Source: a bacterium (lineage in GTDB: Bacteria > UBA10199 > 2-02-FULL-44-16 > DYJF01). Taken from it: a DNA stretch of 64,000 nucleotides. The stretch lies in the NCBI GenBank assembly GCA_041739675.1, contig JBGSNL010000039.1, positions 9,927 to 73,926 of the forward strand. The letters run 5' to 3'. Below the pieces are notes generated by a model. It was given only the letters and a program-made list of their open reading frames with translations, searched no databases and had not been told where the DNA came from. The position numbers were made by a program, and so were the translations under genes. Within the stretch, counting starts at the first letter, position 1. The number at the start of each line of letters is the position of its first letter. Positions 12,086 through 14,905 of this stretch are shown here, in pieces.

Positions 12086-14905
12086 TCAACAAGAAAGAGA
12101 TATCTCCTGTTCCAGAGCGCGGAACTGTTTGTGGAGCTGTTTCTCAAAACCCGCAAAGAATTCGTCGTCCGTTTTTGCGCTCTCGAGCGGCTCTAGATAT
12201 TCCGGCTTGGCGATCATGAGTATGAGAGCAAGCTGCACAAGCCTTGGATCCTCAACCATTTTTGTTTCCGGGTTGTAGAAGCGATTTACGAGAGACTGGA
12301 CTTTGGGAATGGCCATGAGTCCCAAAAACTTTTCGTGACCGACAATCGTTGCCCAGACGCCTTTCTGGACAACCCCGCTCGATTTCAGGTTCATTATCTC
12401 CTCTTGGATCGCCGTGAGCCGCGATATGATATCATTCAAGTGAAGAGGTTTTTTAAGGGCCGATGCTCCCGTGTATTTCATAATATGGTTCGCCCTGTGA
12501 TTCATCGAAACAGCTTCATCCTCCAGCAACTCAACATATTTTCCGGCCCCGTTCTCGCTCTTGAGCCGCTCTATCGCTTTAGCGCCATTTTTAAGGTCGC
12601 TTGCGTACGCTGCGATATTTTCAGCAAGGATGCTCTTGACACGGGATATCTCGCGGTTCCCATTTTCGCCAATCAGAGATAAAAGAGCAAACGCGTCGAA
12701 ACATTTCGGGTCGGTATCGACCGCCCTGGCGATATGTTTTGAGGCCTCCTCCGGATCGTTATCGTTCAGAGCCTTGCGACCCAACGACAGGAGATCAATC
12801 GCCGCGGTGACATCAGAATTACTGGTCAGAAGTTCGGCATTCCATAGGCAGCGCCACCTCCAGCTGTGTCTGCCCTCGCTCTTTAAAAGAGGGGGAAGCT
12901 TGTGCGCTGTGATTGCCGAGTTGATTTTTGCGACGGCCGTGTTGAAGAGCCGGTTCGGAAGCGATTGCAGCTTTTTTGAATCCCATCCGAACAGTGGGTA
13001 TCCCCACAGGCAGCTCACAAAGGCGACGCCATTCACGATTTGGCGGAGAATATGATCGATCAAGCGGTGAGCCTGATTCGCGTTTTCAAAAGCAATGTTA
13101 TTGCCGTCAAGGAAGAGGCGTCCGTCCCATGCGACTCTTATCCTTCCCATCAAAGGTTTTGCCGCCTCGTGCTGTTTTGCTTGCATCGACGAGAGTTGTT
13201 TTGAAAGAACAGTCGCGCTGTCATTCAATTTGGAAATCTTTTGCCGGAGCTCCTCGATCTGTTTCGATTTCTTTTCATGTCTCCTTTCAAGCAAAAGAAT
13301 TTGCCCCTGTAGCGCTGTTTTTTCTCCGTCTACGCCGATGAGTTTCCTGCTTGTTTTATTGAGCTGCATTTCGACGCGGCCGTATAGGCGCCGTGATCTT
13401 ATGAGCAGCAACATGCCGGCGCCGATGATGAAACTCACCATGGAGAGCGCATACCAGCGGCTTTTGTGCCATACGGCAAGCACCATGTTTTTTCTAAGCT
13501 CATGCGCGGCGTTCCGTACGACGGCTTTTAACGTTTCGTCGGACTGTCCCTGTGCCACCGCCTGCCAAATATTCCAAAGATGATTTCGGATAAACTCGTT
13601 TTCAACCACCGTTCCCCACTCGGCAATCGGTGGATAGGATCTCCCTTTTGAAAGCGCCTCATTGAAGACGTTCATGTAAGGAGCGCCGGACAAGTCTTGG
13701 AGTGCGTTGCGGGAGGCCGGTAAAAATCCTATTGAATTTGAATAACGCAGCTCCGACGCGGCCGACGTCAGAAACGATACAAGCGAGAGCGCCCGTTTGA
13801 GGTTTCCGCGTGTCTTTGCGTCGGACCATATTGCTAGATGTGAACCTCCTACGAACGGAACAGAACCTGAGGGTCCTGCGGGCGGAAGGGCAATTCCGAT
13901 CTTGCTTTCCCAACCGTCAGGCAGGCGGCTGCGAAACGCAGGTATCGAGATTATGGATGCAATTTTTCTTCCCAGAAATCTGGTCTCCATCGTTTCGGTG
14001 TTTACATCTTCCAGAACGGCGCATCTCTCCTTTGAGAGGTTCCGCAAGAAAGTCACGGCTGCCAGCGATTCAGGGCTGTCCAGCGAAACGCTGTGGAAAG
14101 GCAGTGAACCGAAAGTTCGAGCTTCGAGTATATCGCCTCCGCCCGCCCACAACCACGGTGCAAGGTTGTGGAGCAGGTTCCATGTCATAGCCAGAGGGAA
14201 ACCGATCAGCCCGTCGAGACCGGGATTGTTTTTCATCGTTTCATGGCATTCGGATTCGAAAGCATGCCAATCGGTGAAGGCGCTTTCAGAAAGCATGTCT
14301 TTCCAATAAAACATGACTCTAACGTCCATGAACCATGGAACAGCATACAGGCCCTTTGCGTCGAACGGTTTCGAACTCTGAATCGCCGATGGAGCAAAAT
14401 CTGCCTCATTCACGATTCCTTCAAGATTTTCAAGGACGCCACGATGTGCAAATGACGCGATCCAAGTGGATCCGACTTGTACGATATCAGGCATCTCATC
14501 GATGGGCATGCTGCCGGCCGACATGAGTGTGTTGAATGCATCGCTCCATCGGATGAATTTGATCGAGATAGGCTCGTCTGTACCTTCTTTTTTTTTAAAC
14601 TCCTTCAGTTCTTCCACCAATTGGTTGTTTCCAATTATATAACTGCCGATAGGTGAGACATTATCAATGCCGCTGGGTTGGATGAGATCGCGAATGTCAT
14701 TTTCAATGAAAATGCCATTTTGTTTCACCTTATTGGTGTAGTCCTGAATTTGCCCCGAAGTGATGTGCGATATGCCGCCCGCAGGCTCATTTGGCATCAC
14801 CCAGATTCGCAGGGGTGATGCAAACGCAGGAGGGGCTAAAAATAGGAAAAAAGATAAGGCAACCGACGGCAGAAGGCTTTTGTAGCGCTTTTTGCAGGCG
14901 AGCAT
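12086..14905 (-). CDS. Fusion: extracellular solute-binding protein (family-1 sugar type) - TM helix - coiled coil - putative wHTH/BTAD(TPR)-like cytoplasmic region
   Basis: Signal peptide; SBP motifs (PDIVQVGSTW, YAVPWF.D.R.MFY, FVGGSHLAI); TM at about aa 484-502; heptad-rich segment; NRLFNTAVAKINS...SEGRHSWRW followed by DV...LLSLGRKAL...A...RAV. Confidence 0.75.
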   Translation of the reverse strand: MLACKKRYKSLLPSVALSFFLFLAPPAFASPLRIWVMPNEPAGGISHITSGQIQDYTNKVKQNGIFIENDIRDLIQPSGIDNVSPIGSYIIGNNQLVEELKEFKKKEGTDEPISIKFIRWSDAFNTLMSAGSMPIDEMPDIVQVGSTWIASFAHRGVLENLEGIVNEADFAPSAIQSSKPFDAKGLYAVPWFMDVRVMFYWKDMLSESAFTDWHAFESECHETMKNNPGLDGLIGFPLAMTWNLLHNLAPWLWAGGGDILEARTFGSLPFHSVSLDSPESLAAVTFLRNLSKERCAVLEDVNTETMETRFLGRKIASIISIPAFRSRLPDGWESKIGIALPPAGPSGSVPFVGGSHLAIWSDAKTRGNLKRALSLVSFLTSAASELRYSNSIGFLPASRNALQDLSGAPYMNVFNEALSKGRSYPPIAEWGTVVENEFIRNHLWNIWQAVAQGQSDETLKAVVRNAAHELRKNMVLAVWHKSRWYALSMVSFIIGAGMLLLIRSRRLYGRVEMQLNKTSRKLIGVDGEKTALQGQILLLERRHEKKSKQIEELRQKISKLNDSATVLSKQLSSMQAKQHEAAKPLMGRIRVAWDGRLFLDGNNIAFENANQAHRLIDHILRQIVNGVAFVSCLWGYPLFGWDSKKLQSLPNRLFNTAVAKINSAITAHKLPPLLKSEGRHSWRWRCLWNAELLTSNSDVTAAIDLLSLGRKALNDNDPEEASKHIARAVDTDPKCFDAFALLSLIGENGNREISRVKSILAENIAAYASDLKNGAKAIERLKSENGAGKYVELLEDEAVSMNHRANHIMKYTGASALKKPLHLNDIISRLTAIQEEIMNLKSSGVVQKGVWATIVGHEKFLGLMAIPKVQSLVNRFYNPETKMVEDPRLVQLALILMIAKPEYLEPLESAKTDDEFFAGFEKQLHKQFRALEQEISLSC

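Follow-up and report, generated by a model that had tools for sequence, protein, structure and literature searches.

A 64,000-nt stretch of bacterial DNA (assembly GCA_041739675.1, contig JBGSNL010000039.1, positions 9,927 to 73,926; referred to in full as the window) encodes P0001, a membrane protein in which a complete periplasmic solute-binding protein (SBP) domain is followed by a single transmembrane helix and by a large cytoplasmic module with a predicted winged helix. We lean slightly towards reading P0001 as a single-pass, ligand-gated, transmembrane one-component transcription regulator with its sensor first and its DNA-binding domain last. This reading draws on structure models of the cytoplasmic module, and the DNA binding, the ligand and the regulon of the family are ones that we infer. 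The parts of P0001 are listed here with their coordinates in the window, their strand and the basis on which they were assigned.

12086–14905, minus strand: whole gene P0001, 939 aa plus stop codon, ATG start (open reading frame)
14819–14905, minus strand: signal peptide, aa 1–29, with cleavage motif AFA↓SP (hydropathy and sequence)
13496–14818, minus strand: periplasmic family-1 sugar-type SBP domain, aa 30–470 (Pfam and PDB matches)
13400–13456, minus strand: single transmembrane helix, aa 484–502, followed by RSRR, positive inside (hydropathy)
13160–13393, minus strand: coiled-coil-like linker of variable length, aa 505–582 (weak coiled-coil-type matches)
12848–13141, minus strand: predicted winged helix of OmpR/PhoB topology, aa 589–686 (AlphaFold2, Foldseek)
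12905–12958, minus strand: predicted recognition helix a3, aa 650–667, PNRLFNTAVAKINSAITA (AlphaFold2, alignments)
12380–12838, minus strand: seven-helix TPR/BTAD-like region, aa 690–842 (AlphaFold2 helices H108–260, Foldseek, TPR profile matches)
12089–12367, minus strand: C-terminal helical domain of ~95 aa, aa 847–939, with the most conserved family motif, EDPRLVQLAL (AlphaFold2, alignments)

The cytoplasmic module

The cytoplasmic part of P0001 was modelled with AlphaFold2 as two constructs, aa 583–700 from 11 sequences and aa 583–939 from 30 sequences, and the models were compared with the PDB by Foldseek, with E ≤ 0.001 as the line of significance. The shorter model has a predicted local distance difference test score (pLDDT) of 89.4 and runs from N-terminal strands through a1, a short strand, a2 and a3 to a beta-hairpin wing; this OmpR/PhoB effector-domain topology has been described for CadC and PhoB (PMC5430869). 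Its PDB matches are winged helices exclusively; the highest TM-scores are 0.64 to AfsR (root-mean-square deviation (rmsd) 3.1 Å, 117 columns), 0.55/0.67 to AdeR, 0.52/0.58 to PhoB and 0.52 to PrrA, and YycF is also among the best. An earlier note, made from the letters of the window alone, had picked out a recognition helix and wing (NRLFNTAVAKINS...KSEGRHSWRW), and these two segments fall on helix 3 and the beta-hairpin wing of the model. The same note had named a fold other than helix-turn-helix (HTH) as an outcome that would speak against it; on the fold, at least, the model sides with the note.

Several features of the winged helix would suit a DNA-reading surface. In the predicted helix 3, R652, L653, F654, T656, K660 and N662 are invariant in the 11-member set. 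Of these six, K660 and N662 also never vary across the 30-member set, where L653 and F654 are kept in at least 90% and R652 and T656 differ in a few members. The conserved R652, T656 and K660 follow one another along the helix at i, i+4, i+8. Where the wing of PhoB has G-T-G-Y-R-F, that of P0001 has G-R-x-S-W-R-W, and the winged-helix domain carries a net charge of +7.

The longer model (pLDDT 91.6, predicted TM-score 0.89) places the TPR/BTAD-like helices behind the wing, and the stretch that had been called BTAD/TPR-like (DV...LLSLGRKAL...HIARAV) supplies the first two of them. TPR proteins match this part of the family profile, and the Pfam TPR hits are weak. The BTAD of AfsR also has seven helices (PMC11301090). 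The six best PDB matches of the longer model are AfsR (8hvr, 8k60) and EmbR (2ff4, 2fez), with probabilities of 0.99–1.00 over 240–338 columns and E-values of 5e-3 to 4e-2, and they outrank generic TPR proteins. The further helical tail that had been noticed in the sequence is recovered as the C-terminal domain, for which neither a PDB profile search nor hhalign returned a match. We had suspected this domain of being sigma-70 region-2-like, from a likeness in its motif and from the sigma-like ends of two relatives described below (P0057 and P0058); neither hhalign against these ends nor the PDB profile search gave a significant result, leaving the idea unsupported.

Weak but specific relatives of the module, each a single stretch sharing the winged helix, the TPR part and the long helices, occur in proteins of other build. 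In P0047, the same module stands behind a CHASE2 membrane sensor and transmembrane helices, the place where kinases or cyclases usually sit, which argues that the module is a signalling output. A weak Pfam 2CompARG hit (E 0.007) lies over the winged-helix region of P0047. In P0057 and P0058, which are soluble proteins of ~510–540 aa, the winged-helix and TPR module is followed by a sigma-factor-like region 2.x–3 (Sigma70_r3 at 30.7 bits, above the cut-off; FliA residues 53–135 at E 0.0065). These two may represent an undescribed sigma-related regulator family, and their fusions tie the module loosely to transcription. Five further soluble proteins (P0062, P0063, P0087, P0090 and P0092) have no kinase, cyclase or DNA-binding Pfam domain, and weak TPR hits are found in P0090 alone.

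The sensor half and membrane topology

The signal peptide, the family-1 SBP domain and the one transmembrane helix that had been proposed for P0001 are all borne out. The signal peptide has its hydropathy peak at aa 10–19 and ends in the cleavage motif given above, and the relatives of P0001 also have an N-terminal hydrophobic segment. In the SBP domain, both SBP_bac_8 (E 1e-17) and SBP_bac_1 (E 1e-16) match above their Pfam cut-offs, over a span of aa 96–403. The nearest solved structures are sugar ABC (ATP-binding cassette) binding proteins, namely 7c63–7c71 (7c63 at E 2.5e-40), CbpB (7x0i, E 3e-32) and Lin1841 (5ysb); we take these proteins to bind beta-glucoside-type oligosaccharides, which gives a lead for the ligand of P0001 rather than a result. 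The first strand of the SBP domain is followed by a family-specific insert of ~50–60 aa (aa 38–95; 14621–14794, minus strand; consensus GIIIENT.QDLL.P), which is kept across the family and lies outside the Pfam and PDB alignments.

The highest hydropathy peak of P0001 begins at aa 484 (19-aa window, Kyte–Doolittle 2.03) and is followed by RSRR, so a type I topology is predicted, in which the SBP domain faces outwards and the last 435 aa lie in the cytoplasm. The coiled coil that had been proposed to follow the membrane helix has weak coiled-coil-type matches at aa 505–582, but the linker is much shorter or largely absent in several relatives (gaps in P0007 and P0010, shorter linkers in others), and a long rigid coil is therefore not essential. 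The earlier statement that P0001 has no kinase or cyclase motif holds beyond this protein: a domain-model search detected no kinase, cyclase, GGDEF, HisKA/HATPase or receiver domain in P0001 or in 30 aligned relatives.

A rare but coherent family

The SBP-first fusion could have been a frameshift or an assembly artefact, a possibility that the earlier note had left open and that the relatives of P0001 dispel. When the cytoplasmic part was used in a word-based search, it picked up 10 relatives (811–1005 aa), each with the SBP domain first. An exhaustive profile search through 1.84 billion representative proteins gave 31 hits at E ≤ 1e-10, and ~30 clusters share the architecture. Nearly all full-length profile hits are 800–950 aa long with the module from residue 440–590 onward, and the short hits are fragments. 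All 30 aligned members match SBP_bac_8 and nothing else, and in all 30 the sensor comes first and the DNA-binding-like module last; the ToxR-like order, with an N-terminal DNA-binding domain, was found in none. The 355-aa cytoplasmic module is conserved to the same degree as the SBP domain. The family is thus rare but coherent. Its genome records are metagenome-assembled genomes (MAGs), of a Bdellovibrio sp., of Pseudobdellovibrionaceae and of organisms unclassified beyond 'Pseudomonadota' or 'bacterium', and the DNA runs that contain the window are from a hot-spring metagenome.

A palindrome upstream of P0001 and its relatives

P0001 and a divergent gene share a 115-nt intergenic region that contains a perfect palindrome and a promoter-like block.

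14975–14990, no strand: perfect 16-bp palindrome TCCGAAACGTTTCGGA, 69 nt upstream of the P0001 ATG (sequence)
14954–14959, minus strand: -35-like hexamer TTGATT within a second conserved upstream block, CTTaTTGAttT (alignment of upstream regions)

Even a search that tolerates three mismatches finds the palindrome a single time in the window. Of 13 independent loci, 11 (the window, L001, L002/L003, L004, L008, L009, L131, L132, L133, L134 and L135) have it before the orthologous gene, 70–175 nt upstream and with 0–3 changes. Each of these loci has one copy, and the ~234 kb around the family loci contain no other; the proteins encoded at these loci share only 28–56% identity over the cytoplasmic part, and their neighbour genes differ. 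The gene call in L133 is over-extended and takes in the palindrome, which precedes the probable real start. When six upstream regions were aligned, ten columns (GAAACGTTTC) showed no variation, unlike the flanks, and L009 carries a symmetric double change (TCAGAAACGTTTCTGA). We also looked for covariation between helix 3 and the palindrome: T656 is kept in 11 of 11 site-bearing loci and is V in one of the two site-less loci, which makes too few cases to carry weight.

The -35-like block lies downstream of the palindrome, at 15 nt in the window and at ~40 nt in other loci; a strict promoter scan did not call its hexamer TTGATT. A spacer of ~25 nt that is present in L001, L002, L131 and L132 is missing from the window at 14960–14974, which brings the palindrome ~2.4 helical turns nearer to the putative promoter. 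On the other side of the palindrome, a TATA-like hexamer follows at 2–5 nt; in the window, 3 nt separate the end of the palindrome from a -10-like hexamer, TTATAG, that faces the divergent gene. With this spacing, the palindrome would cover the place of that gene's -35 element, and, as read from the sequence, its placement there is SARP-like in position, not in symmetry. For L001, a TGGCAC...TTGC block was considered as a sigma-54 promoter and ruled out by its wrong spacing.

A proposed ligand-gated regulator and its alternatives

In the reading that we favour, an oligosaccharide, possibly of the beta-glucoside type, would close the periplasmic SBP domain, and this closure would be transmitted through the transmembrane helix and linker of a dimer, re-positioning two winged helices. 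The winged-helix pair would then bind the two-fold TCCGAAACGTTTCGGA before its own gene and the divergent neighbour, plus further sites, and the BTAD-like part would contact RNA polymerase in the fashion of SARPs. No kinase, receiver or second messenger would be needed. A bolder proposal, which we hold to be somewhat less likely than not, treats the whole cytoplasmic part, from the winged helix through the BTAD-like helices to the EDPRLVQLAL domain, as a very divergent, unrecognised sister of the SARP domain: a portable transcription output module that is placed behind extracytoplasmic sensors (the fused SBP here, CHASE2 in P0047), is joined to a sigma-like region in soluble relatives and reads a two-fold operator as a ligand-gated membrane dimer.

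Several results weigh against DNA binding by P0001 and against its acting on the palindrome, and they are also what the alternatives draw on. At the level of sequence, the Pfam models Trans_reg_C and BTAD are matched by 0 of 30 members even at E ≤ 10, an hhalign comparison of the winged-helix alignment with the PhoB and ArlR DNA-binding domains gave a probability of 0.65% (the PhoB letters used are identical to 1qqi), and searches of aa 583–939 against Pfam, NCBIfam, PDB sequences and PDB profiles gave nothing beyond weak TPR hits. At the level of structure, neither model has a Foldseek match at E ≤ 0.001, and global TM-scores of the whole module are low (0.31–0.43, with an rmsd of 17 Å to SARPs), so its modelled domains are packed unlike those of SARPs. 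The OmpR/SARP and BTAD likeness that had been read from the sequence therefore stands at the level of fold, in the AfsR and EmbR matches and the AfsR-like winged helix of the models, but not as a family assignment. Winged helices also mediate protein–protein contacts, as TPR repeats do, and this opens the main rival to the regulator reading, in which the winged-helix/TPR module is a protein-binding scaffold, anti-sigma-like or partner-sequestering, through which sugar binding would hold or release a cytoplasmic regulator, an arrangement analogous to that of RsgI/SigI carbohydrate sensors; the palindrome would in that case be the site of some other regulator. The missing sequence homology to DNA-binding families fits such a scaffold, as do the Vps25 and MukE winged helices among the top matches of the short model when ranked by E-value, the position of the strongest family motif in the C-terminal domain, outside the winged helix, and the LacI-like look of the palindrome. 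Against it, the topology is specifically the one seen in OmpR/PhoB DNA-binding domains, down to the N-terminal beta-sheet and the short strand that separates a1 from a2, and the top TM-scores are to these domains and to SARPs; the conserved basic and polar residues lie on one face of helix 3 in a domain of strongly positive charge; and a conserved nearby partner gene is missing from all 13 loci. We consider the scaffold unlikely on balance. Far less probable still is an ordinary membrane-anchored transporter binding protein with a structural cytoplasmic tail and no signalling role. One source does label a relative a 'multiple sugar transport system substrate-binding protein', a label that speaks of sugar transport only, but ABC permease and ATPase genes are absent within 6 kb in the larger loci (L001, L002, L008, L009 and L010), and none adjoins P0001 in the window; moreover, the cytoplasmic module folds confidently, is as conserved as the SBP domain and recurs behind the CHASE2 sensor of P0047.

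For the palindrome, the alternative is that it is the operator of a sugar-responsive LacI-family repressor (RbsR/PurR/Cra-like) encoded elsewhere in the genome, with the P0001 gene as a member of its sugar regulon. This would be neutral on DNA binding by P0001 and compatible with either a regulator or a scaffold, and we hold it to be a real possibility, if somewhat short of probable. The core of the palindrome (AAACGTTT, or CGAAACGTTTCG with its central CG) is one that we take to be typical of LacI-family operators, such as those of PurR, Cra and RbsR. The exact 16-mer is also common outside the family: at least 120 metagenome loci hold it and none encodes a family member, so the palindrome is not diagnostic of the family. 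In five of 120 such loci, a LacI-type HTH is encoded within 3 kb, in four of them at ~150 nt; these four are closely related metagenomic LacI-family genes (L017, L073, L079 and L125) with the exact TCCGAAACGTTTCGGA ~150 nt upstream of the HTH-coding segment, and their products are presumably repressors autoregulated through this operator. Within the family, the palindrome is absent upstream in L005 and L010, the latter of which has other palindromes, and SARP and OmpR-family proteins usually read direct repeats rather than palindromes (PMC11301090). On the other side, the 234 kb surrounding 16 family loci encode no LacI-family gene, and local LacI regulators would normally adjoin their targets; the site has no second copy in those 234 kb; and it follows the gene through very different contexts and through proteins of widely diverged sequence. 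The family gene is the sole feature common to the palindrome loci, which favours self-binding, and a two-fold symmetric site fits a parallel membrane-anchored dimer. Whether the palindrome is P0001's own operator, used in autoregulation, is to us close to an even call.

Genomic context

The neighbour genes are not conserved across the family loci, the gene upstream almost always runs divergently, and, as mentioned, none of the 13 loci has a conserved partner gene. Two neighbours of P0001 were considered in the window.

11674–12054, minus strand: gene for a stand-alone receiver (REC) protein, 31 nt past the P0001 stop codon (Pfam Response_reg)
15021–17027, plus strand: divergent gene for an EF-hand and beta-repeat protein (sequence)

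A REC-only gene downstream was found in the window alone and is absent beside relatives. The REC gene and a convergent kinase were dropped from the system because neither is conserved beside relatives, and the REC gene is probably not part of it. A strong match to a sigma-70-like promoter (TTGACC-17-TATATT, 10 of 12; 12089..12061, minus strand) overlaps the P0001 stop codon and ends 6 nt before the REC ATG, so the REC transcript may be leaderless or nearly so.

The divergent gene is a possible co-regulated target of P0001. Its likeliest start is the ATG at 15021, preceded by GAGGAGGAGGGG, rather than the one at 15000. A homologue of this EF-hand/beta-repeat gene is found in L001 (E 6e-58), and L131 has a similar N-terminus. 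Two distant family loci, L009 (1246–4301, minus strand) and L132 (1–1352, minus strand), share another divergent operon, which encodes a 250/255-aa protein (36% identity, E 7e-61) and a TSP3 calcium-binding repeat protein. Secreted calcium-binding repeat proteins are frequent among the family's divergent partners.

Comparison with known systems

Membrane regulators that run from sensor to DNA-binding domain have precedents, among them the hybrid regulators of Bacteroides. ChiS is a known membrane regulator of this order (PMC12704726), and transmembrane transcription regulators as a whole are numerous and diverse, with 50,302 of them counted in 9,673 genomes (PMC10269533). The 'undescribed class' that the earlier note had suggested for P0001 is therefore too strong; the family is probably an uncatalogued branch or variant of the transmembrane transcription regulators. 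That census asked for a recognised DNA-binding domain together with a transmembrane region (PMC10269533), and the P0001 family would thus have escaped it.

The closest analogue in its working would be the CBP–ChiS system of Vibrio cholerae (PMC12704726), in which a periplasmic oligosaccharide-binding SBP likewise controls a membrane regulator with a C-terminal DNA-binding domain (a domain that is predicted in P0001). There, however, the SBP is a separate protein, kinase and receiver domains are kept and the phosphorylation state gates DNA binding, whereas in P0001 the SBP is fused and phosphotransfer domains are absent. ToxR, TcpP and CadC (PMC5430869, PMC10269533) resemble P0001 in combining a periplasmic sensor, one transmembrane helix and a cytoplasmic OmpR-type winged helix (by predicted fold in P0001) in one polypeptide that, with no phosphorelay, would act on DNA from the membrane. 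Their DNA-binding domain is N-terminal (PMC5430869), whereas P0001 has the inverse order, opening with a cleaved signal peptide and the sensor and closing with the predicted DNA-binding domain; its sensor is a complete solute-binding protein fold, and its putative DNA-binding domain is unmatched by current domain models.

With the SARPs (AfsR, EmbR, DnrI and ActII-ORF4; PMC11301090), P0001 shares a predicted OmpR-topology winged helix directly followed by about seven TPR-like helices. The module of P0001 differs in having no detectable sequence homology to them, in its packing and in an added 95-aa C-terminal domain. It is C-terminal and membrane-tethered, beginning at aa 583 behind the signal peptide, the SBP domain and the transmembrane helix, whereas the SARP domain is N-terminal and soluble. 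The sole conserved nearby site in P0001 loci is a palindrome, in contrast to the direct heptameric repeats overlapping the -35 element that SARPs use, and the P0001 lineage consists of Bdellovibrio-like MAGs, not of Actinomycetota.

Implications

If the bolder proposal above is true, P0001 and its relatives would link a periplasmic sugar to a promoter in Bdellovibrio-like bacteria with no kinase in between. Should the module bind DNA, the family would represent an uncatalogued design, in which a whole transporter-type SBP is fused, without a phosphorelay and with the sensor first, to a SARP-like activator, and it would mean that censuses based on domain models overlook such regulators. It would also offer a compact one-protein biosensor chassis, with the ligand outside, the promoter inside and a candidate operator already known. 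The family is rare, and little is known of signalling in the Bdellovibrio-like and uncultured lineages that carry it.

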